Assembly: GCA_017644105.1 (NCBI GenBank)
Contig: JAEPMD010000028.1
Location: forward strand, 1-41,385
Length of the DNA: 41,385 nucleotides
From: Rhizobiaceae bacterium
GTDB taxonomy: Bacteria; Pseudomonadota; Alphaproteobacteria; Rhizobiales; Rhizobiaceae
Direction: 5' to 3'
A program made the translations under genes and the position numbers. The notes under the pieces are model-generated. The model made no database searches and was not told the DNA's origin. It saw only the letters and a list, made by a program, of their open reading frames with translations. This document shows positions 5,742 to 37,067 of this stretch, piece after piece; the stretch's first letter is position 1; each line of letters opens with the position of its first letter.

Positions 5742-5753
5742 TCATTCTAATTT

Positions 5754-7040: not shown

Positions 7041-7053
7041 AGGAGTAACCTTT

Positions 7054-7605
7054 CTAATGAAGTGTTTGATGAGATCTATTGTTTATGAATTGATGATTTG
7101 CGTGAATTTCTGCCAACACTGATGCGGGGATCGGTAGAAGCAGTGATCCAACTGATTTCAAGATCATCGCATATTCGCCAGCTGGTGCGATGACTTGAGA
7201 ACATTTCGCCCGGCAGGACAGAGCACTGACGCTTTCTTCCATGGCTTCGTCATCGCCATGTTGAATAGAAGCAATTAAGCCGAGCAGCATGCATTCATCG
7301 GAATTAAGATGATCAGAACCTGGCGCATGGCATTTTAATGGGCATGTGGCGCAATGGCCTAAATTACGAACCAGGTGACCCAGTGCATTTGCAGCAAGCT
7401 GACCATCATGCTTGCCCAGAACAGAGATAAACTTTCGCCGGCATCGATCCCAATGTGTATCCACTTGTGTCATGTAACCTGCGACCCAGTTTCGATATCC
7501 ATTGACCGTTAATCCTTCTGGTTCCCGTTCAAGATAAGCTTTTGCTGGACACGCATCATTGCTGCCATTTGATGTGAACATTTGATTTTCCGCAGGAGAG
7601 TTCAA
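7054..7605 (-). CDS. hypothetical Cys/His-rich cytoplasmic protein, co-transcribed upstream of the imelysin operon
   Basis: 183 aa with no signal peptide and 8 Cys, including HCATCPLKCH and CRAKC. Its stop lies 14 nt before the imelysin start. It matches no family I recognise. Confidence 0.5.
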   Translation of the reverse strand: MNSPAENQMFTSNGSNDACPAKAYLEREPEGLTVNGYRNWVAGYMTQVDTHWDRCRRKFISVLGKHDGQLAANALGHLVRNLGHCATCPLKCHAPGSDHLNSDECMLLGLIASIQHGDDEAMEESVSALSCRAKCSQVIAPAGEYAMILKSVGSLLLPIPASVLAEIHANHQFINNRSHQTLH

Positions 7606-7707
7606 TAAACTTGAGTATTTTTGTAGAGTATTATTAAACTGGAGTCAAACAGTATAGTTTATAATGTCTCTAAACTAGATTTAAGCTCAACAAAACCATG
7701 CGCTTAC

Positions 7708-8562
7708 GTGAAAATAAAAGTTAAACTTGCATACAGTGCCTCACTGCTCGCAGGATTGGCTGAATCGTTGGCCAAGCGTGGCTGGGATATGCATGTTGTG
7801 CAAGCTTCGCCTGCTGAGAACGAAGAAGATCTCATCCGGAGATTGATCTCCAGCCACAAAGTCAGTGGCGTAGTGTTGTCGCGTCCACACAAAAAGGATG
7901 CGCGCATTAAATTGCTGCAAGACGCAAAAATGCCATTTATCGTTCACGGGCGCTCTTTGGATTGCAGTGACTATGCCTGGTATGATGTTGATAGCAAATC
8001 AGCATTTGTTGAAGCAGTGGATCATCTGGTTGCCTTAGGTCATCATAGGATCGGATTTATCGGCGCACCAACCTATCACAATTTTGCCCAGACGCGTTTG
8101 GATGGCTATCGTGAAGCGATTGTTGCGAACGGCATTGAACTTGATAATGATCTTGTTCAAATCACCGAGCTGTCTGATGACGGTGGCGAACGCGTTGCGC
8201 ATGATCTGCTGGATCTTGAAAATCCACCAACCGCACTTTTATGCCTGACTGACACGCAAGCTTTTGGCGCATTAGCGGCGCTACATTCGCGTGGGTTAGA
8301 ACCAGGCAAACACGTGTCCGTTATTGGGTATGATGGCCTTCGGTTTGGAAGACACACCAATCCGCCATTGACCACAATGGCGCAACCTCAAGCACATTCG
8401 GGTCGTCAATTGGGAGACATGATCTTATCGATCATTGATGGCGATGATCCGAAAAAACACCAAGTTCTTCGTCGTGCCGAATTGGTGCGCCGAAAAAGCG
8501 ACGGTCCCGTTTGGACCGAGGTAAAAACTCAATCAATGAGTAAATGGGAGAGAGAAAAATGA
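7708..8562 (+). pseudogene. LacI-family regulator lacking the N-terminal HTH DNA-binding domain (ligand-binding domain only)
   Basis: The 284-aa ORF begins with a weak GTG directly in the periplasmic-binding-like domain (LLAGLAESLAKRGWDMHVVQ...GVVL). Only ~100 bp of AT-rich DNA separates it from the upstream gene, and no HTH is encoded in any frame. The in-frame upstream stretch has no ATG/GTG/TTG. The 3' end overlaps the solute-binding-protein start (ATGA). Confidence 0.55.
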
Positions 8563-9899
8563 AATCTTTGAAACTACTTGCCGCTGGCCTGATGCTATCG
8601 GCGTCTACTGTGAGCATGTCACTCGCTGACACGATCACAATGTGGACAATGGAGGAGCAGCCTGACCGTATGGAAGCTCAGGAAAGAATTGCTGCCGCAT
8701 TTAAGGCCAAAACTGGCCATGAGGTAAAAGTTGTTCCTGTGTCAGAAAAAGACATTGCTACACGTGCAACAGCTGCTTTTGGCGCTGGCGACCTGCCAGA
8801 TGTTCTTAATCACACAGTACAGCACTTACTTCCTTTTGCGTCAGCGGGCATGCTTGACAGCGGCGCAGCAACCGAAGTTGTTGAAAATCTAGGCATGGGT
8901 TCCTTTGCATCTGGTCCTGTGAACATGGCCAAATCTAATGGTGAAATCGTGTCTGTTCCAACAGATGGTTGGACACAACTGGTTGTTTATCGTGCAGATA
9001 AATTTGCAGAGATGGGTCTTAATCCTCCCAAGACTTTCGCGGATATCGAAGCTGCGATTGCAAAACTGCACAATCCACCGAACATGTATGGTTTTGTCGC
9101 TGCGACGAAAATCGATGAGACATATATGATGCAGCTTATTGAGCACATTTCATTGGCAGCTGGTTATTCTCCAGTGAATGCTGATGGCTCTATCAACGAA
9201 GACACATCAAAACTGAAAAATGTTTTGACCTTCTATAAGACAATTTCTGACGCATCACCGGAAGGTGACCTTTATTGGAAGCAATCTCGCGAGCTATATC
9301 TCGGCGGTAAAGCTGCCATGATCATTTGGTCACCATCTTTGCTCGATGAGCTTGGTGGTCTGCGTGATAGTGCACCAGTGACGATTAATGATGATCCAAC
9401 ATCTAAAGCATTGGCAAAAGATACTGGTTTTGTGACTGTGTTCTCTGGCCCAGGCAATGATGCGGGTGCTGCTTACGCAGATGTGCGTTATCTCGGTATT
9501 ACAAATGATGCCAACACCGAAGTTGCGCAAGAGTTTGTTGAGTTTGCACTTTCAGAAGGTTATGGCGATTGGCTCGGTATGGCACCTGAAGGTAAATTCC
9601 CGGTTCGTAAGGGTAGTGCAGCGGGCAATACCGATTATGAAGTCATGTGGTCTGGCCTGAATGTGGGTGTGGATCGTAAAGAGCCTTTGGGCAATATTTA
9701 TCCAAAAGCTGTGATTGACGATATTGTTGCTGGCCTATCTGTGGGCGATCGCTGGGGCGTGGCTGATGGTCAGCTCGAAACAGCGTCGAAACTTGTGAAT
9801 GCACGGGTCATGTCACAGGTTATCCGTAAATATATCGATGGTGAAATTGATCTCGATGCCGCAGCGAACGAAATCGTTGCCAAGCATAAAGAACTGTAA
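8559..9899 (+). CDS. ABC transporter extracellular solute-binding protein (family 1, carbohydrate type)
   Basis: Start moved to MKSLKLL, preceded by GGGAGAGAG. Signal peptide ending SLADT. Typical sugar solute-binding-protein length (~446 aa). Confidence 0.85.
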   Translation: MKSLKLLAAGLMLSASTVSMSLADTITMWTMEEQPDRMEAQERIAAAFKAKTGHEVKVVPVSEKDIATRATAAFGAGDLPDVLNHTVQHLLPFASAGMLDSGAATEVVENLGMGSFASGPVNMAKSNGEIVSVPTDGWTQLVVYRADKFAEMGLNPPKTFADIEAAIAKLHNPPNMYGFVAATKIDETYMMQLIEHISLAAGYSPVNADGSINEDTSKLKNVLTFYKTISDASPEGDLYWKQSRELYLGGKAAMIIWSPSLLDELGGLRDSAPVTINDDPTSKALAKDTGFVTVFSGPGNDAGAAYADVRYLGITNDANTEVAQEFVEFALSEGYGDWLGMAPEGKFPVRKGSAAGNTDYEVMWSGLNVGVDRKEPLGNIYPKAVIDDIVAGLSVGDRWGVADGQLETASKLVNARVMSQVIRKYIDGEIDLDAAANEIVAKHKEL

Positions 9900-9957
9900 T
9901 CCCATAACAGCACCGCGCCTTTGTGCGCGGTGCCCATTTTACTGACGGTAATTAAAA

Positions 9958-11256
9958 ATGTCTGCAACTGAAAATCTATCTAAAGGCCCGCCAAAAGGCT
10001 TCGGGGCACTGGCGAAGCGCGAGCAACGTTTGGCATATCTGATGCTGTTGCCGACATTTTTGATTGTCTTGAGCATCGTGCTTGGCCCATTATTGGCAAA
10101 CTTCTGGATCAGCTTCAAGCCAGTGCAACTTGCCGATTTGCGCGCTGCCACCACGCTGGTCAATGAGCAATTAAGACCGCGACCCAAAGCAGCGGGTGAT
10201 GAAGTCATCATGCGCTATCGCGTTCGTAACTCCTCTCAAAAAGATCCAATTGCAAATGTAACGCTCGCGGATACAGTCCCTGTGGGGCTAATTTTGCAGC
10301 TCAGTGACGAACGTTGCTCTCTGGATGGGCGTGCGCTGAGCTGTGATTTTGGTACGATTGAGCCGGGTGGCAGATTTAATTTAGATATTCCCACCACGGT
10401 TGAACAGGCTTATTTGGATAATGGCGAAAGACCACGCGATAGCAAAGCGGTTCTAACGGGTGAGTCTAGAAACGTGCTTACCTCGCTTGAATTCACATGG
10501 GAAAATTTTGATAAGGTCTTCTCCTCCTCAGAGTTCTGGTCGGTTCTAAGGGTTTCCCTTTATTACACGATTTTCGGAACTTTGGGGGCTCTGGTTCTCG
10601 GTCTATTTGCCGCGCAATTGCTCAATACCGCCTTTAAAGGTCGAGCAATCTTACGTGGCTTGTTCTTATTCCCTTATGTCGCGCCTGTGATCGCGGTTGC
10701 CTTCGCTTGGGTACTTTTATTAGACGCAGGTCCTGGCGGCACATTTAACGCCATGCTCATTCGCATGGGCGCAATTGATGGTCCGATCAACTTCCTTGGA
10801 CAGCGCGCTATTCCGATGTCGATTTTGGGGTTGGAATTTGAATTTCCGATGGCGCTAACAACAGTGATCACCTTCGAGGCATGGCGCTATTTCCCATTGT
10901 CGTTCTTGTTCATTTTGGCACGCATGCAGTCCATCTCAACTGACATGTATGAAGCAGCTGAGATTGATGGCGCAACACCATTGCAGCAATTCTGGTATCT
11001 ATCATTACCACAGCTCTTAGGCATTTTGTCGGTGTTATTCCTCTTAAGGTTCATTTGGACATTTAACAAATTTGACGACATTTTCCTTCTCACAGGAGGT
11101 GCGGCGGGCACCCGAACTCTAACGGTGGATGTGTATGAACAGGCATTTGCTGTGTCCAATTTGGGCGCAGGTGCAGCGGTCGCGGTGGTCGTGTTCTTTG
11201 TACTTCTGTTCTTCGCACTCATCTTCTTTAAATTTTCACCACAGGATGACGGCTAA
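9958..11256 (+). CDS. ABC transporter permease (MalF/UgpA-like) with a ~130-aa DUF11-like Ig-fold insertion in the first periplasmic loop
   Basis: 432 aa against ~290 typical. EAA-loop region present (AAEIDGATPLQQFWYLSLP). The insert ANVTLADTVPVGLILQLSDERCSLDGRALSCDFGTIEPGGRFNLDIP matches the DUF11/'conserved repeat domain' consensus. Confidence 0.85.
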   Translation: MSATENLSKGPPKGFGALAKREQRLAYLMLLPTFLIVLSIVLGPLLANFWISFKPVQLADLRAATTLVNEQLRPRPKAAGDEVIMRYRVRNSSQKDPIANVTLADTVPVGLILQLSDERCSLDGRALSCDFGTIEPGGRFNLDIPTTVEQAYLDNGERPRDSKAVLTGESRNVLTSLEFTWENFDKVFSSSEFWSVLRVSLYYTIFGTLGALVLGLFAAQLLNTAFKGRAILRGLFLFPYVAPVIAVAFAWVLLLDAGPGGTFNAMLIRMGAIDGPINFLGQRAIPMSILGLEFEFPMALTTVITFEAWRYFPLSFLFILARMQSISTDMYEAAEIDGATPLQQFWYLSLPQLLGILSVLFLLRFIWTFNKFDDIFLLTGGAAGTRTLTVDVYEQAFAVSNLGAGAAVAVVVFFVLLFFALIFFKFSPQDDG

Positions 11257-12512
11257 TGAAGATCGGAACAATTACATTTTCTGCAGCAATTATTGGTGCA
11301 ATCTGGGGTGCAGTCTGGATGATCGTCATCGGCATTTTGCTGATGTTGGTTTCAGGGATCACAGCATCGCCACCTGCTGGCACCGCGCTAATTGTCGGCC
11401 TGATAGCTGGGTTATCATTCATCCTTTTACCGATAGAAAAACGAACGACCAATCTGTTTGCTATTTTGGGCGTAGGCGTTGCGGTTCTTTTATTTGCGCT
11501 CACCGGCGGACAAGTCTTTGGTGCGTCTTTCTCCGATGGCATGCTTTATCAGATTTTAGCATGGGCCATCTGGACAGCTCTGGTGGTTTTGTCGATCAAG
11601 ATGTGTTTGCATGATTATGCATCTGGTTCCGCAAAGAGATATCGCATGGAGCTCTTGCTCATCCGCGTTCTTAAAGGCCTGGCCTTTGTACTGTTTACGA
11701 TCGTCGTGATCCTGCCCTTTTATGTGATGTTGATGACAAGCCTTAAAAGCCAGCAATCCTTGCTGTCCAACCCGCTTGATTTTTCAATTAACCTATCTCA
11801 GGGACCTGAGCTCCTATTCCGCTCCTATATTGAATTATTCACACAATATCATTTTGGAACATTCCTCTTAAACTCAGCACTTGTGTCTGTCGCAACTGTG
11901 TTCATCACGCTATTATTTGCTGTGCCTGGTGCTTATGCTGTTGCGCGGTTGCGCTTTCCAGGACAAGTCTTTTTATCACGCTCGATCCTGTTGATTTATA
12001 TGGTGCCTGCGATTGTCTTGGTGATCCCACTTTATGCAGTCTTCTCGCAAGCTGGCCTTCGTAACTCGCTCACAGGATTGCTCATCGTTTATCCGGCGAC
12101 CACGATTCCGGTCGCGCTTTATATGCTGCAAGGATATTTCAGAGGATTGCCGGGCGAGTTAGAAGAAGCGGGTCTTATGGATGGTCTTTCACGCGTTGGC
12201 GTGATCGCTAAGATCACCATGCCGCTGTCATTGCCAGCCTTAGCATCCGTTGCGCTTTATGTCTTTATGATTGCGTGGAACGAGTTCTTATTTATGATTG
12301 CGTGGAACGAGTTCTTATTTGCCTTTATGTTCCTCGATGATCTCGACATGTTTACGCTCTCGCGCGGGGTTGTGTCGCTGAATTCGTCTGAAGTACCGCG
12401 ACAACATCTCATGGCGGGTGCTGTGGTCGCCACCGTTCCGGTATTGGCAATTTTCCTTTGGTTTGAAAAGTTCTTAGTTGCAGGCCTCACCGCCGGCAGT
12501 GTGAAAGGTTAA
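11256..12512 (+). CDS. ABC transporter permease (MalG/UgpE-like) with ~125-aa N-terminal extension (about 4 extra TM helices) and an internal 9-aa tandem duplication
   Basis: 418 aa against ~280 typical. The canonical core starts near MELLLIRVLKGLAFVLFTIVVILPFYVMLMTSLK. The extension is stop-free and hydrophobic. The start overlaps the upstream stop (TAATG). Confidence 0.8.
   Translation: MKIGTITFSAAIIGAIWGAVWMIVIGILLMLVSGITASPPAGTALIVGLIAGLSFILLPIEKRTTNLFAILGVGVAVLLFALTGGQVFGASFSDGMLYQILAWAIWTALVVLSIKMCLHDYASGSAKRYRMELLLIRVLKGLAFVLFTIVVILPFYVMLMTSLKSQQSLLSNPLDFSINLSQGPELLFRSYIELFTQYHFGTFLLNSALVSVATVFITLLFAVPGAYAVARLRFPGQVFLSRSILLIYMVPAIVLVIPLYAVFSQAGLRNSLTGLLIVYPATTIPVALYMLQGYFRGLPGELEEAGLMDGLSRVGVIAKITMPLSLPALASVALYVFMIAWNEFLFMIAWNEFLFAFMFLDDLDMFTLSRGVVSLNSSEVPRQHLMAGAVVATVPVLAIFLWFEKFLVAGLTAGSVKG
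12267..12320 (+). repeat. perfect 27-bp tandem duplication (atgattgcgtggaacgagttcttattt x2) inside permease gene
   Basis: Direct reading: units at 12267-12293 and 12294-12320 are identical. They encode MIAWNEFLF twice, in frame. Confidence 0.95.
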
Positions 12513-16032: not shown

Positions 16033-18069
16033 TTAAGCACCCCCTAATGGCCATGGCAATTCAACATAGTCTTGCAGAAGACCCGGAGGAAAATCGCGAT
16101 TTAAAGTCCAAGCCATAAAGCAAATGAAAGCAATGCCAATTGCCGTTAGAATTGCAGACTTACTCCAGTTTTCACCAGCACGAATTCTAAAGAAGCTAAT
16201 GAGGAAGATTGCCAGCGCGATGATGAACCCAAACAAGCCACTTAGAATAAGTAAGCCGGCAAACCATGCGAGCGTTGGCCATAGACCATGGGCTGCATCT
16301 GCATCATCACCATCAGCCTCGCGATCCGCAAAGACCATATCCGTTTCCGGTTGTCTGATCATGCGCACAAGCAGAACGAGACAGCAGATGATCGCCACGA
16401 TTGAGACAACCATCGGGATGATTTTATCGCCCATCAAGCGGTCACTGATTTGCGAGGCATTCCAATAAGTCACGATGAAATAGCCCATGATGAGGCTGAG
16501 GAAAATAAACGGCGCACGTTTGGAACCGTATTTGACATCACCTTCTGCAAGGATCGATTTAGCCTGACGAATGCCAACGGCAACTGAGACAACCGTGATG
16601 ACCAATAGGATCAACACAATTGGGCTGAAGATGTATTCAAGCCCTGCTTCCATGCTTTCGCGGAAACGAAAACGCGCAATCTGAAACGCCTGATTGGTAA
16701 ATTTCTCAACTGGGTTCGACAAAACAAACCCGATAAGGAAAGCTGGGCGTGACCAGTCAAACCGGCGGAGGAATATGCCCAACAATCCTATACCAAACAA
16801 TGCGACGAGATCGGCGAAATTTTGCCCAGATTGAAATGCTGCAAACGAGATGAGCATGAACAAAAATGGCGCCAGCAAGGTAAATCGAATTGTCGTGAGT
16901 TTTGCGATCATGCCAGACGAGGCAATGCACATAACTGTGCCCACTACATTGGCAAGCGCCAGCAGCCAAACAATTGAATAGGTGAAGTTGAGATTGTCCT
17001 TGAGCATAGACGGGCCAACTTCAATGGAACCTGAACCTAACAGCGCAACAGCGCCGATAAAGATCGCCATGGAACCAGAACCTGGAATGCCGAATAAAAG
17101 CGTTGGGACAAGACCGCCACCTTCTTTGGCATTATTTGAGCTTTCAGGCCCGATTACTCCGCGGACTTCGCCATTACCAAATTTCGATTTGTCTTTGGTG
17201 GTTTGCACCGAATGACCATAGGCGATCCAATCGACCACTGAGCCACCCAGTCCGGGAATAATGCCCACAACAACACCAATGATTGAGCAACGGACCGAAA
17301 GCCAGATATTGGCCCACCAATCTTTCACACCTTCAAACCAACCTGCTCCAAGGGTGGCTGATTTCGAGATGGCACGATCCTGTCTTAGAAGCGAAATAAT
17401 TTCGGGAATCGCAAAAATCCCTAAACCCACGATAACCAATTTCAAGCCATCAGTTAGATAGGGGATATCATAGCTGGCCATACGCAGACTTCCGCCCGCA
17501 TCGGCTTCACCAATCGTGCCAACAGCCAGACCAAGGCCCGCAGCAGCAATTCCTTTAATTGCGACGCGCCCCGCAAGGATTGCCACCATGGAAAGGCCCA
17601 AAATGGTGATCATCAACATTTCGGGTAGGCCAAATGACAATACGATCGGTCGCGCAACCAGAATAAAGACTGTTAGAAACGATGCGCCAATTAAGCCACC
17701 AAATAAAGAGGATGCAAAGGCGGCAGACAAAGCGCGTGCTGCTTCACCGTTTTTTGCCATAGGAAACCCATCCAGCACGGTCGCTTGCGAGGCTGATGAA
17801 CCGGGAATGCCCATCAAAACAGAGGCAAACGTATCTGAGGTTGGCACAACAGCGACCATACCGATCATCAATGCGAGGCCCAAAATTGGGTCCATGCCAA
17901 ACATAAAAGGCAACAGAAGAGATAGACCTGCAATGCCGCCCAAACCGGGGAACACGCCAATACATAAACCCATCACCACGCCAAGGACGAGATATCCAAG
18001 CACGATGGGTTGAAGTATAAGCGCAAATGCGTCGCCAAGGGCTGGTAACGCCTGAGTAAAGACGTCCAT
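16033..18069 (-). CDS. tctA: tripartite tricarboxylate transporter large permease TctA with a ~180-aa C-terminal 4-TM extension (TctB-like fusion)
   Basis: Start at MDVFTQALPALGDAF, preceded by GGAGG. The TctA core ends near LRRFDWSRPAFLIGFVLSNPVEKF. A further ~180 aa with ~4 hydrophobic helices follows, whereas typical TctA is ~500 aa. Confidence 0.75.
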   Translation of the reverse strand: MDVFTQALPALGDAFALILQPIVLGYLVLGVVMGLCIGVFPGLGGIAGLSLLLPFMFGMDPILGLALMIGMVAVVPTSDTFASVLMGIPGSSASQATVLDGFPMAKNGEAARALSAAFASSLFGGLIGASFLTVFILVARPIVLSFGLPEMLMITILGLSMVAILAGRVAIKGIAAAGLGLAVGTIGEADAGGSLRMASYDIPYLTDGLKLVIVGLGIFAIPEIISLLRQDRAISKSATLGAGWFEGVKDWWANIWLSVRCSIIGVVVGIIPGLGGSVVDWIAYGHSVQTTKDKSKFGNGEVRGVIGPESSNNAKEGGGLVPTLLFGIPGSGSMAIFIGAVALLGSGSIEVGPSMLKDNLNFTYSIVWLLALANVVGTVMCIASSGMIAKLTTIRFTLLAPFLFMLISFAAFQSGQNFADLVALFGIGLLGIFLRRFDWSRPAFLIGFVLSNPVEKFTNQAFQIARFRFRESMEAGLEYIFSPIVLILLVITVVSVAVGIRQAKSILAEGDVKYGSKRAPFIFLSLIMGYFIVTYWNASQISDRLMGDKIIPMVVSIVAIICCLVLLVRMIRQPETDMVFADREADGDDADAAHGLWPTLAWFAGLLILSGLFGFIIALAIFLISFFRIRAGENWSKSAILTAIGIAFICFMAWTLNRDFPPGLLQDYVELPWPLGGA

Positions 18070-18094
18070 AACAACCTCCAATAAAGCAGAATGT

Positions 18095-25363: not shown

Positions 25364-25376
25364 TCGCGCCCCAATA

Positions 25377-26183
25377 TTAAGAACGCAATTGCGCAATAAT
25401 GCTTTCAATTGTTTCGACGATGGCTTGTGAATGGGCCACATTTGATGCTGATCGTTCGGGACTTGCAAAGCGTCTTGCATCATTATCAAAATATTTGCCA
25501 GACGCATTGGCGAACTCATCAGATAATGCAGCACGACACAAAATATCAGCGCCAATACTTAAATCATGCCCCTCAACACCGAAACCTTCCTTGACCATCT
25601 TGCTCGCCAGTAATGATCCAGGGTTCACCGCGACGAAGAGAGGACCATTTGGCAATTTTTTTGCTAGCTCTTGTGTCCAGATGGTGATTGCAAGCTTGCT
25701 TTGCGCATAGGCTGACATTGCGTCCAACTGCACGCCGCCTCTAAGAGCATCAATATCAACGGGCGCTTGCGCGGCAGATGATAAATTAATCACGCGACCA
25801 TCTTCTGGCATGATGGGCAGGAGCTGTTGAGTGAGCGCATAAGGCGCGATGGTATTGACCATAAAACGAGTATCAAGCCCATCTTTTGTCGTTGTGACAG
25901 GCGTTTTGAATATGCCAGCATTATTGATGATAATATCGATTTTATCGTGTTTTTTAAGGATCTCTTTTGCCATTTGATCAACATCATCAAGCGATGACAT
26001 ATCTGCCAGATATGTTTGTGTATCCCGGCCAATTTGCAGCGCAACGTTCCGCAATTTATCTTTGTTTCGGCCATGCAATAATATGATGTTTCCTTCAGCT
26101 GCGAGCATCCTAGCTGTTTCAAAACCAATGCCATCGGTGGCACCTGTGATTAGAATTATTTTGCTCATATCATTATTCCTCAT
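25377..26183 (-). CDS. SDR-family short-chain dehydrogenase/reductase
   Basis: TGATDGIGFETAR Rossmann motif, NNAG, and the Y..K catalytic pair (YAQSK). Confidence 0.85.
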   Translation of the reverse strand: MRNNDMSKIILITGATDGIGFETARMLAAEGNIILLHGRNKDKLRNVALQIGRDTQTYLADMSSLDDVDQMAKEILKKHDKIDIIINNAGIFKTPVTTTKDGLDTRFMVNTIAPYALTQQLLPIMPEDGRVINLSSAAQAPVDIDALRGGVQLDAMSAYAQSKLAITIWTQELAKKLPNGPLFVAVNPGSLLASKMVKEGFGVEGHDLSIGADILCRAALSDEFANASGKYFDNDARRFASPERSASNVAHSQAIVETIESIIAQLRS

Positions 26184-27111
26184 GTGAGAAGTTTGGTAGA
26201 ATGTCTGATGCCAATTGTTTCATTGTCTGTTCGACATCATTGTTGTTAAAACGCAGATTAAGCGCGACATGATTGACACCGATATTTTCAAGTGAACTGA
26301 GATATTCGATTAGGTATTTTGAACCGGATCGAAAGCCCAAATGAATGGGATGCGACTTCGTGTCCGGATTTTCTGCCAGATCAATATAAAGCGACTGCAT
26401 GACAGGCTTATTTGGTAAGTCGAATGATTTGATCCCCGCACGGTATTTATCAATGATATGTGCCTGTGCATCGACATTGTGCGGATAGGTCATCCAACCA
26501 TCGCCATTTTGTGCAATCCAATCCGGATGTTGTTGGCTGCCACCCGTGATCAATAACGGCAATTGCCCGGATGAAGGTTTTGGCAACATATCAATGCCAC
26601 CAGAGACTTCACCATAGGCATTTGCAAAATGCGGCCGGGAACTTGCCATCTGGCGAATATAATCGACACTTTGCCGGAACCGCTCACCGCGATCCTCAAA
26701 TGTCATATTCATAGCGGGATATTCTTCAGGCCTATCTCCTGAAGCAATACCCAAAAGAAGCCTGCCTCCGGAAAGAACATCAGCGCTTGCTGCGGCTTTA
26801 GCAACTTGAGCCGGATGCCTTAAAGGTAAAACAATGCTGGCGACACCAAGGGCGATTTTGTTTGTTTGGGCGGCTAAATATCCAAGATAAACAAATGGAT
26901 CATAAAGCTGGCCTGCATCCCCGAAGGTCGGTACATTAAATGGCACATCTCGCAACCAAACGGAGGAGAAGCCCAACGCCTCAGCCAGTTGAATACGTTC
27001 GATATGCCGATCCATATTAGCAACGGGATTATTTTGATGCGCTTCGAGCGGAACGACCAAACCAAGTGATAGTCTGTCGGGTTTGAAAACGCGATTATAT
27101 GCGCTGTTCAT
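26173..27111 (-). CDS. LLM-class (luciferase-like) flavin-dependent oxidoreductase
   Basis: TIM-barrel LLM motifs (GFSSVWLRD, LGYLAAQTNKIALGVASIVLPLRHPAQVAK). Overlaps the SDR start by 11 nt. Confidence 0.8.
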   Translation of the reverse strand: MNSAYNRVFKPDRLSLGLVVPLEAHQNNPVANMDRHIERIQLAEALGFSSVWLRDVPFNVPTFGDAGQLYDPFVYLGYLAAQTNKIALGVASIVLPLRHPAQVAKAAASADVLSGGRLLLGIASGDRPEEYPAMNMTFEDRGERFRQSVDYIRQMASSRPHFANAYGEVSGGIDMLPKPSSGQLPLLITGGSQQHPDWIAQNGDGWMTYPHNVDAQAHIIDKYRAGIKSFDLPNKPVMQSLYIDLAENPDTKSHPIHLGFRSGSKYLIEYLSSLENIGVNHVALNLRFNNNDVEQTMKQLASDILPNFSHEE

Positions 27112-27222
27112 AACCTAAAATGAATTGGTCCTTATATCGTCCATGATAATCTTATCTTTCAATGGGTTTGCCGGCACATGATGCACCGGCAAACAATTGA
27201 TCTTTGTTCTTTTCTCAAACCT

Positions 27223-27528
27223 TTAAGAGGCAAGATCATCCTTGCCTTCAATCAGAAAATGCACGCTGTTTGATCCGGCTGTGCGTTCTTTAAGATGGGG
27301 AACATATTCCGGGTCAGACATGAAGGATTTGGCAGCGTCGGCTGATGGCCATTCAATGACAATGCGCAGGGCTGCTTCGCTTTTAGCGCCCTCTATTTGC
27401 TCATGCGTAGATGTGCGCGCTAAGTATTTCCCACCATATTTCGCAACCAATTTGTTGGCCGGTTCAATGTAGCCTGGGATCCATTCATCTGTTGTGGGCG
27501 TAACGGCAAGTACAGAATAATAAGTCAT
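27223..27528 (-). CDS. DUF1330-family protein
   Basis: 101 aa. YYSV...GGKYLARTS pattern typical of DUF1330. Confidence 0.65.
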   Translation of the reverse strand: MTYYSVLAVTPTTDEWIPGYIEPANKLVAKYGGKYLARTSTHEQIEGAKSEAALRIVIEWPSADAAKSFMSDPEYVPHLKERTAGSNSVHFLIEGKDDLAS

Positions 27529-27713
27529 ATAATTGTTCCAAAATCTAAACTGAGACTTTCTCTTGTGGCTCAGCTGGTTAATTCCAAGGGCTATCTGCTA
27601 TTCAAAACGGGATTGCTTGAACGCCAATTCATCCCCAAGAAACAAATAGATTATCTTTGAAAATTGTATAAGATAGCCAAATACGATTTCATAATTCGGA
27701 TTTTAAATATAAT

Positions 27714-28631
27714 ATGGATTTAGACGGCGTACGACTTTTCGTTCTTTCAGCTGATTTGCTCAATATCAGCGCTGCGGGTCGCACTTTAGGCTTGGCGCCA
27801 TCGGTGGCCAGTGCGCGTTTGGCGAAATTGGAAACTGAAATGGGCGCTGATCTGTTGCATCGCTCCACCCGGAAGGTGTCTTTATCTATTGAAGGGGCTA
27901 ATTTTTTACCCTATGCGCGCGAAATCATTGCGCAGGAAGACATGGCAAAATCTGCGCTCGGACTGGGCTCGCCGATAGTCACAGGCACCATTCGATTTGC
28001 GGCACCCAGCACCTTTGCGCAAATCTATATATGCCCGCTCATTCCAAAATTCTTGTCGTAAAACCCGCATCTTGATTTGGATCTGCGCTTGTCTGATTCT
28101 CAATTCGATCTCATTGAGGGCAGCTTTGATCTGGCATTGCGCAATATCGAGATCAGCGATTCAAGTTTAATGGGGCGAAAACTTGCAGATGACAGGCGTG
28201 TCCTATGTGCATCTCCCACTTATATTAATGAATATGGTAAACCGGAAATAGTTGAAGATCTCAAAAATCATCAGATCATATCATTCCGAGATAACTCACC
28301 CAAAACTTTGATCAATCAATCTGGCGAGAAAATAGACATTCCATCTAACAATGACAAAAGAAATGTCATTATAGATGATGGCTTGAGTTTGAAAGTCACT
28401 ACGCAGGCGGGGGCAGGCATATCTATCAACTCTTTGTGGAGTGTGGCATCGGCCCTTGAAGACGGCAGTCTTATTAGAGTGTTGCCAGAATATGTATTAG
28501 CCGATCAAACCGCTTTGTGGCTGATTTATCCAAAATCTAACGTACTGACCGCAAAGGTCAGAGTTCTGATTGATTTTTTGATCGATGAGATCAAAAAGCC
28601 CTTGAAACGTCTCAATCATAAATTTGCGTAA
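27714..28631 (+). pseudogene. LysR-family regulator interrupted by an in-frame TAA (nonsense) at 28059-28061
   Basis: ORFs 27714..28061 and 28077..28631 are in the same frame. Read-through gives ...CPLIPKFLS*NPHLDLDLRLSDSQFDLIEGSFDLALRN, the canonical LysR linker (FL.RYP...LDL). A Tyr (TAY) to TAA change is the likely cause. Confidence 0.7.
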
Positions 28632-28852
28632 CAAGACAGTTGCAATTTTTGTTCGCATAGAAAAATCCCGTCGTCAAACTTTCATATTTCTGACACACGC
28701 AAGCAACAAACTATCGTTTTAAGTGCGTCTAGTCCGTGTCAGTTCATTGATGAAATCTCATCCGTAATGAGAGCTGCGTTCAATCCATGCTGCGCTGACA
28801 AATTCAGTGAAACCAAATACACCAAACTATTTATTTTGAGGAGCTCTTCGCC

Positions 28853-30742
28853 ATGAGCGAGAACATAGAAAACGCAGAAATTACATTTGATGATTTCGAC
28901 GAAATGATCAATCCATCACCTGAGGTGACAGATTTTGATAGTGTCGTGGAAGAATCTATTAGCCGCCGCGGTTTTTTAGGTGGCGTTCTGGCATTTGGTA
29001 GTTTTGCTGTTATGAATTCTGGATTTGTTGGCGAAGCCAAGGCTGCAGATAATCGATTTGCATTTGATCAAATTGCGATCAGCACGGAAGCTGCGATCAA
29101 AGTTGCACCAGGCTATAAGTCAGAAGTTGTTGTTCGTTGGGGAGATCCACTCTTCTCCGATGTTCCTGAATTTGATCACGCAACACGCGGTACAGCTGAA
29201 AGCCAAGCGCGTGCTTTTGGTGACAATATCGATGGCATGGAAGTTTTCGCCCATGATGGCAAATTGATCTATGTGGCCAATAATGAATATACCAACCGCT
29301 CCATCATCTGGGGCAATAATCCAGATGGCAAAGCTGCAAACGACGATGACATTGCCAAAGGTAAGATGGCACACGGCCTAACAGTTGTTGAGATCGCCAA
29401 AGGTGAAAATGGCTGGGATATTGTCAAAGATAGCCCCTATAACCGCCGCATCACACCAGATACTGAGATGGCTTTGACAGGCCCGGCTGCTGGTCATGAC
29501 CTTGTAAAAACAGACGCTGATCCAACAGGCACCGTCTCTTTGGGTACATGGAACAATTGCGGGAACGGCATGACACCTTGGGGCACTTACCTGGCATGTG
29601 AAGAGAACTTTAACGGCTATTTCTCTGCAAGTGATGAAGACCATAAAGTCTCCGCCGAACTCAAGCGCTATGGCGTGTCGTCAAAAGACTGGGGTTACGG
29701 CTGGGCGAAAATCGATGATCGCTTTAATGTTCAGAAGAACCCAAATGAGCCAAACCGCGCAGGTTATGTGGTTGAACTTGATCCACGCGACCCAACGTCA
29801 ACGCCGAAAAAGCGCACAGCGCTTGGTCGTTTCAAACATGAAAACGCTGAAGCTGTTGTCAATAATGATGGCCGCGTTGTGATTTATATGGGTGATGATG
29901 AGCGCGGTGAATTTTTATATCGTTATGTCTCGGATGGTGTTTTCGCGCCTGGAGCTGATACAGATGATTTGATGGAAAATGGCACGCTTTATGCAGCCAA
30001 ATTCGATCCTGCTGGTTCTGGTAAATGGCTTGAATTGTCCCCGGAGGCAACCGGCATGTCCAAAGCTGAGATCTGCATTCACACGCGTATCGCCGCTTCA
30101 AAAGTAGGCGCAACAACGATGGACCGTCCGGAATGGGTCACCTCAAATCCGAACGCGTCGGAAGTTTATTGTGCGCTCACGAACAACAAGAACCGTGGTA
30201 TTAAACCAAATGCAGGTGGTGACCTTACTCCTGTTGAAGGCCCGAACCCACGCGAGGGCAATCCTTATGGTCAGATCGTACGTTGGAAACCAGCTGGCTC
30301 TGATCATACAGCGGATACATTTGCCTGGGATTTATATTGCTTGGCGGGCAATCCAGACGTGCATGATGATGCGCTTGCGGGCTCACCCAATATTAATGCG
30401 GACAATATGTTCAATTCACCCGATGGCTTGAAGTTTGATTCAAACGGTCTTTTGTGGATCCAAACAGATGGCAATTACAAAAACGAAGAGAACTTCGCCG
30501 GTCACGGTAATAACCAAATGCTGGCAGGCGATCCGGTAACGGGTGAAATTCGCCGCTTCCTTGTTGGCCCAAAAGAATGCGAAGTCACCGGGCTCACATG
30601 GTCACCTGATCGTCGCACAATGTTTGTTGGCATTCAACATCCGGGTGAACGCGGTGACAGCCATTGGCCAGAAGGTGGTGATGCTGTGCCACGTTCCGCA
30701 TTGATTGCTATTACCCGCGAAGATGGCGGCTTGGTGGGTTAA
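28853..30742 (+). CDS. phoX: PhoX-family alkaline phosphatase (DUF839), Tat-exported
   Basis: 629 aa. Tat motif SRRGFLGGVLAFG after an acidic 35-aa n-region. Conserved PhoX block NNCGNGMTPWGTYLACEEN. RBS GAGGAG before the ATG. Confidence 0.8.
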   Translation: MSENIENAEITFDDFDEMINPSPEVTDFDSVVEESISRRGFLGGVLAFGSFAVMNSGFVGEAKAADNRFAFDQIAISTEAAIKVAPGYKSEVVVRWGDPLFSDVPEFDHATRGTAESQARAFGDNIDGMEVFAHDGKLIYVANNEYTNRSIIWGNNPDGKAANDDDIAKGKMAHGLTVVEIAKGENGWDIVKDSPYNRRITPDTEMALTGPAAGHDLVKTDADPTGTVSLGTWNNCGNGMTPWGTYLACEENFNGYFSASDEDHKVSAELKRYGVSSKDWGYGWAKIDDRFNVQKNPNEPNRAGYVVELDPRDPTSTPKKRTALGRFKHENAEAVVNNDGRVVIYMGDDERGEFLYRYVSDGVFAPGADTDDLMENGTLYAAKFDPAGSGKWLELSPEATGMSKAEICIHTRIAASKVGATTMDRPEWVTSNPNASEVYCALTNNKNRGIKPNAGGDLTPVEGPNPREGNPYGQIVRWKPAGSDHTADTFAWDLYCLAGNPDVHDDALAGSPNINADNMFNSPDGLKFDSNGLLWIQTDGNYKNEENFAGHGNNQMLAGDPVTGEIRRFLVGPKECEVTGLTWSPDRRTMFVGIQHPGERGDSHWPEGGDAVPRSALIAITREDGGLVG

Positions 30743-30756
30743 TTCCACAATCACTC

Positions 30757-30796
30757 AAAAAATATGCCGGCTAAGTTATCTTAGCCGGCACGTTTA
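30757..30796. terminator. bidirectional rho-independent terminator
   Basis: AAAAAATAT-GCCGGCTAAG-ttat-CTTAGCCGGC-ACGTTT: a perfect 10-bp stem between convergent phoX and sqdC. Confidence 0.75.
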
Positions 30797-30803
30797 ACGA
30801 GTA

Positions 30804-31706
30804 CTAAATCCAAGAAAAATCAAGTTTGCCTCTGGGTTTCCAGCCCAGTGATTTCAGTCGTGTACAATCCATGGCATTATAGTGATCGGCGTTTGCGCGA
30901 ACCGGAAGATAATCTTTGCTCAATTGCTTCACATCCGCATAGGTTTCCCACAATTCACGACGATCGAGCAAGATATCAGAGACATTGAAGATTGGCGCAA
31001 TTTCCTCAGATGCTGCACGTCTGATGTCATCTGCTGATGCATCCAGCAAAAGTCCCACAGCATTGGCGAGATCCTCGCCATAAACTTCAGTACCGACCCT
31101 TGGTGCTATCTCTTTGCCATTGTCAAAATCATGAAATAACTCCGTCCATTTATGTTTAAGTGGCCGCTTGGCGGGGCCATAAACGCCTGTTGCGCGCAAA
31201 ATGATGGGAAGAAAATTCTCACCTGCGAGATCTTCAAGCGCGCGTTCGGTTCTAAGTTTCACTTCGCCATAAAGCGTATCTGGTTTGGGTTCTTGTGTTT
31301 CGTGTAAATTCACGCCCGGTTCCTGCGTGCCATAAACAGCGCGGCTGGACAGAAATATCGCGCGCGGCACACAAGCAGCTTTCACCGCATTAAACAATTG
31401 CATGGAACCATCATGGTTGAGGTGCATAAATGCATCAGGATCATCACCCTCGCCACCACGATATTTTCCGGGTACATGATGAAATGCTGCATGCACAAAA
31501 CCATCGCAACCTGAAAAAACACTTGGATCATAATCCGTCTGAGACAAAGACATGGATTGAAATAAAACCGGCTTGCTGAAAAAATCTGGTCGTGGGGCTT
31601 TGCGACCCAAAATGAGCACTTGGTGGCCTGCTTCTAGGAGCCCCTCCACAATGAAGCGTCCGACATAGCCCGAAGCACCGCTGACGATAATCCGCTTAGC
31701 TGTCAT
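30804..31706 (-). CDS. sqdC: NAD-dependent epimerase/dehydratase-family protein, SqdC-like by operon position
   Basis: IIVSGASGYVGRFIVEGL Rossmann motif. ~300 aa. Third gene after sqdB and sqdD, as in the Rhodobacter/Sinorhizobium sqd operons. Confidence 0.6.
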   Translation of the reverse strand: MTAKRIIVSGASGYVGRFIVEGLLEAGHQVLILGRKAPRPDFFSKPVLFQSMSLSQTDYDPSVFSGCDGFVHAAFHHVPGKYRGGEGDDPDAFMHLNHDGSMQLFNAVKAACVPRAIFLSSRAVYGTQEPGVNLHETQEPKPDTLYGEVKLRTERALEDLAGENFLPIILRATGVYGPAKRPLKHKWTELFHDFDNGKEIAPRVGTEVYGEDLANAVGLLLDASADDIRRAASEEIAPIFNVSDILLDRRELWETYADVKQLSKDYLPVRANADHYNAMDCTRLKSLGWKPRGKLDFSWI

Positions 31707-33761: not shown

Positions 33762-33947
33762 TCAGATATTAACAACGCGGTCTCAATAACAGGCTTTTTT
33801 GACAGAATGAAGATAGTCACGTCGACAATCTTATTTACAACCCATTATTTGTGGATGGGTAACAGATCGCAACGCGCGCTTTAGACACAACCTCATAATT
33901 TTGTGGTGCTAACTTTGAGATTCGACCAAGTGCGCCAACTAAACTTT

Positions 33948-33976
33948 CAAAAGAAAGGCCCCCAAAATGGAGGCCA
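33948..33976 (-). terminator. rho-independent terminator after the Amt-MCP gene
   Basis: Minus strand: GGCCTCC-atttt-GGGGGCC followed by TTTCTTTTG. It separates the Amt-MCP gene from the sqd operon. Confidence 0.6.
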
Positions 33977-34009: not shown

Positions 34010-36622
34010 TTAAGCCGCTGCAACATTCGCCGCTTCATCCTCGGTTTCAAAATGAGATACATCATTATGAAGAGCCGCAGAGAAACTCCTTAACAAACTT
34101 GTCACCTCTGATGTTTTGCGCGCTTCGCCGAGCGTTGACTGCATCAGCTCTTCGATATCATCCACAAGACGTTTTATGGCGGAGATATTTTGCGTATCAG
34201 ACTTCGACGCTTGGCTTATTTCAGAGATGATTTCAGCCGAATTTTGCGCGACATCTGTGATTTGACCCAGCGAGTTTTTGATCTCATCCATCACAGTTAC
34301 TCCGCCCTGGATCAAGACATTATTCTCTTTCATGATATCTCCGATTTCCTGCGAAAGATCAGCGACACGGATTGAAAGATCGCGAATTTCCTGTGCAACA
34401 ACAGCAAATCCCTTGCCTGATTCTCCAGCCCGCGCCGCTTCAACGGCTGCATTAAGCGCAAGAATATTGGTCTGGAACGCAACGTCGTCCACGAGCTCGA
34501 TAAACTTTTGCGCTTTTTCAGACGATTCTTTGATCTGATGCATGCTTTGTAAAGCAGCATTTGCTTTTTCATGAGACATGCCGGAAAGCTTGCTCGTTTC
34601 CGAAGCCGCTAAAGACGCATCCTCTGCATTTTTGGCCGTGCCATAAATTGCAGATTCCATCTCAGTCAATCGTTGGGTGGACTCATTGATTTTAGCGCCT
34701 TGAATTTCAGACTGATTTCGTACTTTCGAGGCTGTTTCATCCAACTGACCTGCAGATCCGTCAATTTCTTTTGAACTTGAACTGATCGTATTGATGACTT
34801 TCGTCATTTTGGATGTGGCCTCATTATAGGACAGTCTAATATCGGCAAAGTCGCCTTGGGCATCCTGCATCTCGACGGTTTTAAGACGGCCATTTGCAAG
34901 CTCTGAGAGGGAGACCTTCATATCCCCCACAACATTTGATGTTGCGTCAAGCAGTCCATTTAAGCCCTCCGAGATGGTTTTGATCACACCCGTTTTGCCT
35001 TCAAGATCCATGCGACCTGCGAGCTGACCTTTTCGTGCCGCATCGATGATTTTAGAAATTTGCATAACGGCATGCTTTTCCTGTTCCGCATAGGCCGCGC
35101 GTTCGGCAGCATCACGGCTCTTGGCTTTTTCTTCATCCTCCAAATTATTGAGTAGAAGATTAAATAATTCCGCAAGCTCACCAGCTTCATCACCTGGCTC
35201 CACCTTTAAGCGCGTGCCAAGATCAGCATCGCCTGTCACCAAAGTTGCAAGCACTTTTTGCAATTCACCCGTTCCCAAAGACGCGCCATGCTCTGCAACA
35301 TTTAACCCATCATGCTCTTCTTCTTGGGTCACGCGCAATCCAACGACGATATCCACCAATTTAAAGACGATAAATGCAAGTGGGAAAGCCCATGCAAATG
35401 CCACTGCGACACCTTGCGCCTGAACGAGGAACTGATCCCAGCGTGTTGCGGCCACAAGATTTTCCTGCGTTGCAAATACAGCCACAAGCAATGTGCCAAC
35501 CACGCCACCGATCCCGTGAACTGAGACCGCGCCAACGGCGTCATCAAGCTTGAAGAACCTTAGCAAAATTTCTTCGCTGGCGACGACACACATGCCACAT
35601 AACAGGCCAATAATTGCAGCGCCTTGCGGGTCGACCGCAAAACAGCCAGCCGTAATACCAACTAGACCACCAAGCAAACCATTGATCGAACGCGTTGGAT
35701 TATAAAGTCCATCGTAAAAACGACCGATAAACATGGCCGCAATACCGCCAAATGCAGCGGCGATGACCGTGTTTGCCACAACACGGGCAAAGTCGGGTGT
35801 GCCTGCGGTTGTGGAACCACCATTAAAACCGATCCAACCGACGAGTAGCACAATAGCGCCACCTGCAGATAGCACTGTCGAGTAGCCTTGAATTTCAATC
35901 GGTTTTCCATCTTTGCCAAAGCGGCCAAATCGCGCACCCATGACAACAATACCAGCAAGACCAACCCAAGCACCTACGGAATGCACGACGGTGGAACCTG
36001 CAAAATCAATAAAGCCAGCATCTGCAAGCCAAGCCGGATTATCGCCTATGAGCAGATTGCCCCATGCCCAATGGCCGTATACCGGATAGATAAATGCGGC
36101 GATGACGATGGAAATTAAAAGATAACCGCCAAATTTCATCCGTTCGGCCACTACGCCTGACACAATGGTGGCTGCCGTGCCGACAAACACGGCTTGGAAG
36201 ACAAAGAATGTATAGGGCCATTCTTCCATCTTGTTGAACATGCCAAGCTCGGACACGCTGCCCAGCCACCCGCTTTCGCTCGCGCCAAACATGATACCAA
36301 AACCAAAGAGATAGAATACGACGACTGCAAGGAAGAAATCTGAAATATTCTTCTGCGCAACATTGATCGAGTTCTTTGAACGCACCATACCAGCTTCAAG
36401 AAGCAAGAATCCAAACTGCATCATCAACACCAGCGCTGCCGCGGTCATCGTCCAAATATGATCTGAATTTGTTTGTTGCGCTTCAATTTGCGTCTGAAGT
36501 TCTGCAGCCCAATCGGCCAATTGTTCTGTTGCTGCCATTGCAGCATCAGCGGTGAAAAGAGCGACCATTAAAAAAAACGAAAAAAACGAAAAAAACGAAG
36601 ATTTTACAAAAGAAATACTCAT
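34010..36622 (-). CDS. single-chain fusion: Amt/MEP ammonium transporter domain + HAMP + methyl-accepting chemotaxis signalling domain (putative ammonium transceptor chemoreceptor)
   Basis: Amt part (~aa 62-445 of the 880-aa ORF): signal peptide, 11 TM helices, Amt signature [26 protein letters not shown], twin His (VVHSVG, SVHGIGG), C-terminal region [21 protein letters not shown] (~aa 462-505): [40 protein letters not shown] core (~aa 724-765): [35 protein letters not shown], with heptad-rich flanks. Start is either 36652 (MSIYK) or, preferred, 36622 (MSISF, preceded by AGGGTTGGAG). Confidence 0.85.
36570..36597 (-). repeat. 3 tandem copies of 9-nt unit CGTTTTTTT (coding strand) giving (SFF)x3 in the signal peptide; homopolymeric T7/T7/T8 tracts
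   Basis: Read directly: plus strand A8CG-A7CG-A7CG. Confidence 0.9.
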
Positions 36623-36839
36623 AGCTCCAACCCTAGTCTTATAAATTGACATGCAAAAGCAGGCTACGGCATCATACCAGCGTAAAATTACGCCCCTAAA
36701 TCCTAGTTATTTCGATTAAACCTTAATTAACTATGAAGACAAACCACGTGATTCCACGGTTTGAACAAGAAAACCATCCGAAATACAATCCAGAATTTTG
36801 ATACTATTTATCTCAAAATTTATAAGCGCAATTTTAAGT

Positions 36840-36935
36840 TGTTGAATATCTTGTCTGCACTAGGAGGTCACAAGCATATCTGAAGTGCTTCTCTCCCGAC
36901 CCATTCACATTACCGAGAGGGATTTGGATATTCAA
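36840..36935. repeat. perfect 12-bp inverted repeat TTGTTGAATATC ... GATATTCAACAA separated by 72 bp in the Amt-MCP / flotillin-like divergent intergenic region
   Basis: Read directly. Arms at 36840-36851 and 36924-36935. Confidence 0.85.
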
Positions 36936-37067
36936 CAAGACCCCACATACAAATAGTCGTGGACAAAAATTTATGAACACGCATTTCGTGTAATCACGGC
37001 TTGCGGTTCGTTGGACACATAGGATATTTCCCATACTGATAAAACGACCACTCTTTAAGGAAATATC

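Follow-up and report, generated by a model that had tools for sequence, protein, structure and literature searches.

What does an ammonium-transporter fold do when it is joined, in one chain, to the signalling end of a chemoreceptor? This question is raised by a gene on a 41,385-nt stretch of DNA (in what follows, the window) from a Rhizobiaceae bacterium (GenBank assembly GCA_017644105.1, contig JAEPMD010000028.1, positions 1 to 41,385), where an uninterrupted open reading frame (ORF) on the minus strand encodes an Amt domain, HAMP units and the signalling domain of a methyl-accepting chemotaxis protein (MCP). An initial annotation, made from the letters alone, had described the product as a single Amt-HAMP-MCP polypeptide and a candidate NH4+-sensing chemoreceptor with no periplasmic ligand-binding domain, and this core reading survives every computational test that was run. 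To judge from its sequence, the protein is probably an Amt-like ammonium receptor, of the AmR class that includes Ks-Amt5 and Sd-Amt1, provided with an MCP output, that is, a candidate ammonium chemoreceptor. For other outputs, the literature already covers the receptor class, its ligand site, the link through HAMP and the break in symmetry; what is new here is the MCP as the output of this known class.

Profile searches recovered all three kinds of domain, as predicted, in the one polypeptide. The Pfam model Ammonium_transp matches residues 67-457 with 343.7 bits against a cut-off of 23.2 (E=1.5e-102), the NCBIfam model TIGR00836 ('amt') scores 357.6 bits, above its cut-off of 343.3, and MCPsignal (PF00015) covers residues 684-835 with 104.6 bits against 34.6 (E=6.7e-30). 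The first HAMP unit (HAMP1, residues 463-506) reaches 22.5 bits when the whole protein is scored, against a cut-off of 25, and 26.4 bits as an isolated segment, while the HAMP_2 match at residues 555-614 (23.5 bits) stays slightly under its cut-off of 24.3. The motifs quoted in the initial annotation were all located, at residues 216-227 (Amt signature), 440-456 (acidic C-terminal region of the Amt domain), 474-500 (HAMP) and 726-760 (hairpin tip), and the 11 transmembrane (TM) helices and the twin histidines, H224 and H379, are present as well. An AlphaFold2 (AF2) model, built as a monomer, places the 11 membrane helices downstream of an N-terminal hydrophobic segment, with a pLDDT of about 85-96 in the Amt core and low confidence in the linker that follows HAMP1. 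HAMP1 is modelled as a helix (462-472), a connector and a second helix (489-513), and the signalling part as one long hairpin of two helices, 601-741 and 743-866. The block 507-573 is absent from about 85 of 121 homologs in the gap profile, so that the subfamily of this protein carries additional linker sequence or perhaps one more HAMP-like unit; residues 516-578, scored alone as a third HAMP, gave no Pfam match, and their AF2 confidence is low.

Such an architecture could in principle be an artefact of assembly or annotation, in which a frameshift or a chimeric contig has run two genes together, but the probability of this is close to nil. In a collection of 5.8 billion proteins, the best 120 homologs were examined, and every one, over a range of 94% to 38% identity, has PF00909 together with PF00015. 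An exhaustive search of representatives at 50% identity found 119 Amt+MCP fusions among the top 150, with lengths of 617-968 aa, so that the query for this domain pair across genomes, suggested at the outset, returns at least 119 clusters at that level. Among GTDB species representatives, full-length fusions occur at about 18 species loci in four phyla: in Alphaproteobacteria (Roseibium, Terasakiella, Roseospirillum, Methylobacterium, Curvivirga and sphingomonads), in spirochaetes including Leptospira perolatii, in a metagenome-assembled genome (MAG) of Myxococcales and in a planctomycete. Isolate genomes are among the carriers (Roseibium, Terasakiella pusilla, Roseospirillum parvum and Leptospira perolatii), and the identical full-length architecture recurs in hundreds of independent assemblies. 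The closest relatives are a Logan contig (94% identity) and a Rhizobiaceae MAG (90% identity). An exact look-up of the 880-aa protein in public assemblies gave no entry, and to judge from these relatives the source is probably a marine member of the Rhizobiales. The initial annotation had itself pointed to a frameshift or an assembly join near residues 445-465 as the weak spot of its reading. Across 121 fusion sequences, residues 440-506, which lead from the final TM helix via the Amt C-terminal region to HAMP1, align with hardly any indels and include invariant positions, and base composition does not change abruptly along the gene. The conserved architecture and the invariant junction residues rule out a chimera or frameshift between Amt and HAMP. 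The Amt modules of the fusions are mutual nearest neighbours, in three or four clades; therefore, the fusion is old and has been passed on as a unit.

The Amt module is closest to proteins that sense ammonium. In a ranking of PDB sequences, Ks-Amt5 (300.9 bits) and Sd-Amt1 (297 bits) score well above Af-Amt1 and EcAmtB (about 160 bits), and Foldseek, run on the AF2 model, gives TM-scores of 0.95 for Ks-Amt5 and 0.92-0.93 for Sd-Amt1, ahead of AmtB, within an overall range of 0.88-0.95. Residues F156, W197, D216, H224, F276, S280 and H379 align with F107, W148, D160, H168, F215, S219 and H318 of EcAmtB, and no residue has been lost from the periplasmic recruitment site (Trp/Ser), the Phe gate, the twin His or the conserved Asp. 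The study of Sd-Amt1 took as the mark of the receptor class a site within the membrane for two NH4+ ions, N1/N2, and proposed for it the signature QX6EX15NX2D[F/T]X54-60TX2[S/T]; assimilatory AmtB and fungal Mep2 fall into a 'cluster 1' that has no N1/N2 site (PMC11152129). The present protein matches this signature exactly at residues 79-165, as found by regular expression, with Q79, E86, N102, D105, T162 and S165 as the ligands and K101 and Y177 as the switch residues. Across 121 fusions, Q79, N102, D105, T162, S165 and Y177 are invariant, and E86 and K101 are each kept in 120. The markers of the transporter class in Af-Amt1, Tyr27 and Ser251, are the residues that line the cytoplasmic exit in assimilatory transporters, and they correspond here to Glu86 and Asn324, as in Sd-Amt1.

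Sd-Amt1 of Shewanella denitrificans (Amt-HAMP-GGDEF; PDB 8qj3, 8qj4 and 8qpf) offers the nearest parallel at the junction. Its Amt module is 41-42% identical (TM-score 0.92-0.93), its N1/N2 ligands are the same, and its Lys44/Tyr119 switch corresponds to K101/Y177. In both proteins HAMP begins about three residues past the '...E(H/F)G' end of the Amt C-terminal region (EHG in the present one), and both pose the same problem of a trimeric sensor with a dimeric output, a symmetry break that the authors of Sd-Amt1 have already discussed (PMC11152129). They differ in that the output is a non-enzymatic MCP hairpin acting via CheA/CheW here and a diguanylate cyclase there, and in that the Rhizobiaceae protein adds the HAMP_2-like unit, a variable linker of about 50 residues and a longer, signal-peptide-like N-terminus. 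Ks-Amt5 from 'Candidatus Kuenenia stuttgartiensis' (an Amt-histidine kinase, PDB 6eu6), the best match in both sequence and fold, likewise combines the N1/N2 site with a C-terminal transducer; however, it has no HAMP (PMC5764959), its output is a DHp/CA kinase, and its switch residues are Arg and Asn instead of Lys and Tyr. The initial annotation had cited Ks-Amt5 as the known precedent, which is right insofar as it is a relative among the Amt receptors, but it is not the sole closest one, as the same Amt-HAMP junction is found in Sd-Amt1. In Ks-Amt5 NH4+ controls the kinase to which the Amt is fused, and in Sd-Amt1 the cyclase (PMC5764959, PMC11152129).

The AmtB-GlnK pair and fungal Mep2 share with the present protein the Amt fold, the pore residues and an acidic C-terminal region that serves as coupling element, but their signalling depends on PII as a separate protein or on a C-terminal region that becomes phosphorylated, with no fused transducer. 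The coupling might also run in reverse, so that a working transporter would be placed in an array, or regulated there, by its MCP tail instead of by GlnK. No glnK lies beside the gene here or in eight annotated homolog loci, and the fused cytoplasmic module would probably cover the face on which GlnK docks in AmtB, both of which speak for this proposal. Nevertheless, it is highly improbable, given that a HAMP with an entire kinase-control hairpin behind it, ending in a Tsr-like tip, is built as an output, that paralogs join Amt-HAMP to GGDEF, histidine kinase and SpoIIE domains, an arrangement that is sensible only with Amt as the input, and that the direction from Amt to output has been shown experimentally in Ks-Amt5 and Sd-Amt1 (PMC5764959, PMC11152129).

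The output module is that of a chemoreceptor. The hairpin aligns to residues 228-520 of E. coli Tsr without net indels, and its tip is nearly identical to that of Tsr; its C-terminal arm measures 124 residues in the AF2 model, or about 18 heptads, and Foldseek returns a TM-score of 0.91 to the HAMP-Tsr structure 3zx6. The lack of net indels and the match as a single hairpin assign it to the 36-heptad class. Because the tip is so close to that of Tsr, it should bind CheW/CheA and control the kinase. The likeness to E. coli Tsr and Tar thus extends to a hairpin of equal length, to the tip and to a HAMP upstream of the hairpin, whereas the inputs differ: a sensor with two TM helices and a periplasmic four-helix bundle in the E. 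coli receptors, and the 11-TM fold of a trimeric transporter in this protein.

The current model of how the two halves would work together is borrowed in large part from the relatives. As is established for the family, the membrane part would form the usual Amt trimer. Periplasmic NH4+ would be recruited at the Trp/Ser site and then pass the Phe gate and the twin His to occupy the lateral N1/N2 pocket formed by the six ligand residues, as suggested by homology to the ON and OFF structures of Sd-Amt1. Binding would flip the E86/K101/Y177 switch and shift the cytoplasmic C-terminal region, again as in Sd-Amt1. This region is tied to the canonical HAMP1 by a linker of fixed length; the packing or pairing of HAMP1 would change, and the change could be relayed through the second HAMP-like unit and down the 36-heptad hairpin to CheA, for which the Tsr-like tip speaks. 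In the AF2 model HAMP1 is not helically continuous with TM11, but is suspended from the C-terminal region of about 25 residues. A Tsr-like piston, transmitted through a transmembrane helix, is therefore unlikely, and the ligand-controlled HAMP pairing proposed for Sd-Amt1 is the better model.

Several observations weigh against this reading of the protein as an ammonium chemoreceptor, and some of them touch the input. The eight N1/N2 residues were found in 87 of 87 related Amt domains retrieved, 39 of them without an output domain, and plant AMT1 proteins that do transport share the signature cluster (PMC11152129). The signature was therefore tried and rejected as a discriminator between sensors and transporters, being present in every related Amt, fused or not; it marks a subfamily and shows that the pocket exists, not that the pore has stopped conducting. 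It could be argued that the protein is a true transceptor, whose pore conducts ammonium for assimilation while flux or occupancy is signalled through the MCP, a behaviour that has reportedly been proposed for fungal Mep2 and plant AMT1. The intact pore, gate and twin-His residues are compatible with this, as is the occurrence of the signature in stand-alone Amts and in plant AMT1 transporters. On the other hand, the nearest characterised relatives, Ks-Amt5 and Sd-Amt1, perform charge displacement rather than translocation (PMC5764959, PMC11152129), and Glu86 stands in place of the exit-vestibule Tyr, in the position of the Glu that in Sd-Amt1 seals the pocket off from the pore (PMC11152129). 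We regard transceptor function as distinctly unlikely. Of the label 'transceptor' used in the initial annotation, the signalling fusion and the intact pore stand, but transport cannot be asserted, as the module resembles receptors that do not conduct or in which binding dominates.

The identity of the ligand was weighed in the same way. Amt/Rh proteins have been linked to other substrates, and the sensor might respond to methylammonium or other small amines, to K+, or to pH/NH3. This is very unlikely, however, because every residue for NH4+ recruitment, gating and N1/N2 binding is conserved, and because Sd-Amt1 and Ks-Amt5 are more selective than transporters for NH4+ over methylammonium, K+ and Na+ (PMC11152129).

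Further points against a chemoreceptor of the usual kind come from the output. The consensus of CheR/CheB methylation sites, searched for as [ASTG]xx[EQ][EQ]xx[ASTG][ASTG], a pattern that recovered four known sites in Tsr as positive control, has no match in the protein; the Tsr methylation positions 297, 304, 311, 493 and 502 are not conserved, and the C-terminal pentapeptide of the NWETF type is absent. In this the protein differs from Tsr and Tar, and it is not isolated within its family, as about two thirds of the relatives have no match to the consensus either (75 of 121 homologs and 83 of 119 representatives). The consensus is not universal among MCPs; E. coli Aer is not known to carry it. 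Classical adaptation by methylation is therefore doubtful for this receptor; adaptation is probably independent of methylation or supplied by neighbouring receptors, and the methylation assay with CheR and CheB that had been suggested may well turn out negative.

These features have a bearing on the pathway that the receptor would feed. The best NCBIfam match of residues 521-877 is the Vibrio Aer2 model NF041847, with 184.8 bits against about 100 for models of the Tar/Tsr type, and the HAMP_2 region shows a weak match to the Aer2 poly-HAMP structure 3vol. Receptors of the Aer2 type, from Pseudomonas aeruginosa and Vibrio, likewise carry HAMP_2-type units before a hairpin of 36-heptad length, but the present protein is integral to the membrane, has no PAS-haem domain and scores far under the equivalog cut-off of 1200. 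In the Myxococcales MAG (locus L019), a che operon at 368-9187 is divergently adjacent to the Amt-MCP gene (9839-12292), in the order cheA-cheW-mcp(poly-HAMP)-cheR-cheD-cheY-cheB, plus an extra REC protein. This adjacency supports a link to Che signalling, and the gene order, which recalls the che2 cluster of P. aeruginosa, hints at an Aer2/Che2-like pathway. Ammonium might thus be sensed on behalf of a non-flagellar, Che2/Aer2-type pathway or one with an alternative function, such as biofilm formation, c-di-GMP or gene expression, with which the missing methylation sites would also agree. This destination is possible, if somewhat unlikely: the Aer2 score falls far short of that family, in many Proteobacteria the main flagellar pathway, too, relies on receptors of 36 heptads, and most Amt-MCP genes are orphans, so that gene context assigns no pathway. 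Complete or partial che clusters were found within 10 kb of the fusion gene in two of the 24 loci probed with che proteins, L019 and L085, the latter at a distance of about 5.5 kb.

In the window itself, Pfam annotation of ORFs of at least 134 aa found no che, flagellar or glnK gene, as the initial annotation had stated, and the gaps that flank the Amt-MCP gene are too short for a glnK; the lack of che and flagellar genes counts against a role in chemotaxis. Entry of the protein into canonical arrays is hypothetical, as the three chains of an Amt trimer have no direct counterpart in the dimers of MCPs or in their trimers of dimers. In addition, a literature search of incomplete coverage found no functional data on any Amt-MCP. 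A more far-reaching proposal is that Amt-MCPs form a separate class of chemoreceptor, with a transporter fold of three-fold symmetry and an intramembrane NH4+ site, in which the ligand would control the pairing of HAMP and MCP hairpins, within one trimer or between neighbouring trimers, in place of the piston-type signalling of a constitutive dimer. These would be dedicated ammonium chemoreceptors, independent of methylation, with an array stoichiometry not seen before, for instance two trimers providing the three dimers of one trimer of dimers. We put this forward tentatively and hold it to be unlikely in its full form.

The MCP is one of several outputs to which this kind of sensor has been joined. 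Elsewhere, the sensor-type Amt, often together with HAMP1, is fused to GGDEF, PAS-GGDEF-EAL, GGDEF-EAL, hybrid histidine kinase, Hpt-HATPase or SpoIIE phosphatase modules. As the same Amt-HAMP pair occurs with so many outputs, it behaves as a portable ammonium input cassette. In a Spirochaetia MAG (L030, 9995-12733), a sensor-type Amt is fused to Hpt and HATPase_c domains in a protein of 913 aa, which may be a kinase of the CheA type, or one with an Hpt domain, coupled directly to an ammonium sensor. Single-cell genomes of Pelagibacteraceae hold tandem Amt genes with C-terminal tails of about 300 residues (L049, 7309-9459 and 9875-12118, and likewise L059); the tail of the second L049 gene contains a SpoIIE/PP2C phosphatase domain, another uncharacterised Amt output, in SAR11.

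The ends of the gene were also defined (Table 1). The single ORF of 880 codons, counted from the first ATG, is borne out, with a revised start. P0001, a homolog of 94% identity, opens with the identical sequence MSISFVK, and a GGAG lies just 5' of the ATG at 36622, which is the likelier start and would give a protein of about 870 aa. A cleavable signal peptide is plausible, as predicted from a hydrophobic segment with A-x-A that is kept in kind among homologs. At 36571-36599, a perfect 9-nt tandem repeat of 3.2 copies, with T7 runs on the coding strand, codes for the SFF-SFF-SFF of this N-terminus; it is an in-frame, slippage-prone site, and P0001 differs in sequence there. The hairpin and T-run after the stop codon agree with the terminator that the initial annotation had placed at 33948-33976. 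In the upstream region (36653-37067), no sigma-54 promoter of the -24/-12 type (TGGCAC-N5-TTGCW, up to two mismatches) and no Pho-box-like site was found; a sigma-54/NtrC promoter for the Amt-MCP gene was accordingly rejected.

Table 1. Features of the Amt-MCP gene and of its product, in window coordinates (residues are numbered from the first ATG of the ORF)
Feature	Coordinates	Strand	Basis
Whole ORF, Amt-HAMP-(linker)-HAMP_2-MCP fusion protein	34010..36652	-	ORF call, Pfam, NCBIfam
Probable true start codon, ORF residue 11	36620..36622	-	GGAG close upstream; homolog P0001
Signal-peptide-like N-terminus, 31 residues	36530..36622	-	Hydropathy, homolog N-termini
Amt/Mep/Rh membrane domain, residues 67-457, 11 TM helices	35282..36454	-	Pfam E=1.5e-102, alignment to EcAmtB and Af-Amt1, AF2, Foldseek
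N1/N2 ammonium-receptor signature region, residues 79-177	36122..36418	-	Exact match to published signature; conserved in 121 fusions
Conserved Amt C-terminal region, residues 440-456, running straight into HAMP1	35285..35335	-	Alignments, motif check
HAMP1, canonical, residues 463-506, same position as in Sd-Amt1	35135..35266	-	Pfam HAMP, AF2
Variable linker, possibly an extra HAMP-like unit, residues 507-554	34991..35134	-	Gap profile, low AF2 confidence
HAMP_2-like unit, residues 555-614, adjoining the signalling hairpin	34811..34990	-	Pfam HAMP_2, likeness to Aer2 poly-HAMP 3vol
MCP kinase-control hairpin, residues 601-866	34055..34852	-	Tsr alignment, AF2, Foldseek
Pfam MCPsignal core, residues 684-835	34148..34603	-	Pfam E=6.7e-30
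Hairpin tip, predicted CheA/CheW-interaction region, residues 726-760	34373..34477	-	Near-identical to Tsr
Intrinsic-terminator-like hairpin and T-run, 35 nt past the stop codon	33947..33975	-	Hairpin itself at 33957-33975
Upstream intergenic region, divergent from an SPFH/Band-7 gene	36653..37067	.	Promoter and site scans

The Amt-MCP gene is a stand-alone receptor gene, like most MCP genes. Its downstream neighbours are sqdB, sqdD, sqdC and phoX, and on the other side lies the divergent gene of the SPFH family. The initial annotation had seen in this a phosphate-starvation module and hence a neighbourhood of nutrient limitation, a suggestion that did not hold. In the locus of the closest relative (L001), where nucleotide identity is about 83% on both sides and sqdBDC is kept, a 5.7-kb segment (25365-31064) that carries phoX is missing from the otherwise collinear sequence. 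Adjacency to sqdBDC is limited to the nearest relatives, more distant homologs having unrelated neighbours, and among the eight annotated homolog loci there is no glnK and no conserved partner gene. Pho-box-like repeats (CTGTCAT-N4-CTGTCAT, three mismatches each) were found at 28668-28696 on the plus strand, as two overlapping matches about 160 nt upstream of phoX, and at 33799-33816 on the minus strand, about 40 nt upstream of sqdB. These positions fit PhoB control of the phoX and sqdB units, but the count over the whole window is not above chance (6 against 3.6). A link of the Amt-MCP gene to the Pho regulon was rejected, as there is no site upstream of it and the phoX segment is absent from the nearest relative; as far as can be told, the phosphate-starvation neighbourhood is coincidental.

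Some observations on the surrounding DNA and on a further locus can be added. The segment 25365-31064, which looks like a strain-specific insertion or deletion, also holds a luciferase-like monooxygenase gene, another ORF and a LysR fragment (28077-28631) that consists of the substrate-binding domain alone. At 1976-7040 the window contains two imelysin (Peptidase_M75) genes, a di-haem oxidoreductase (DHOR) gene and a DUF1513 gene, a set usually tied to iron uptake and without relation to the Amt-MCP gene. A single ORF of 682 aa at 16033-18081 joins TctA and TctB of a tripartite tricarboxylate transporter, and adjoins a PrpF gene and a two-component system. In the locus of a homolog of 59% identity (L083, 5304-8429), the Amt-MCP gene is followed by genes for a LuxR-type regulator with an autoinducer-binding domain and for a protoglobin-MCP, that is, a globin-coupled sensor.

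As for novelty, the literature search, of incomplete coverage as said, found no paper in which an Amt-MCP is described or tested, in agreement with the initial statement that no experimentally characterised one was known, and it identified no bacterial ammonium chemoreceptor. Chemotaxis finds no mention in the two papers on Amt receptors or in a review of prokaryotic Amts from 2023. The degree of novelty had nevertheless been overstated, since at least 119 clusters at 50% identity make up the family and Sd-Amt1 is already an Amt-HAMP ammonium receptor.

Taxis towards ammonium has been observed in bacteria, and the conserved Amt-MCP family provides a concrete candidate for its receptor, which can be put to the test in cultured organisms that have it, among them Terasakiella pusilla, Roseibium spp., Roseospirillum parvum and Leptospira perolatii. 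The members of the family carry only the database label "ammonium transporter", so that counts made from genomes are slightly off, both for chemoreceptors and for the capacity to take up ammonium. With the MCP, the concept of the Amt-like receptor, so far one of kinase and cyclase outputs, would come to include the chemotaxis machinery. The MCP would also provide an especially sharp case of the passage from trimer to dimer symmetry, because chemoreceptor arrays have a strict geometry, and how trimers of three chains would be accommodated in arrays built from dimers is the most interesting point that these proteins raise.

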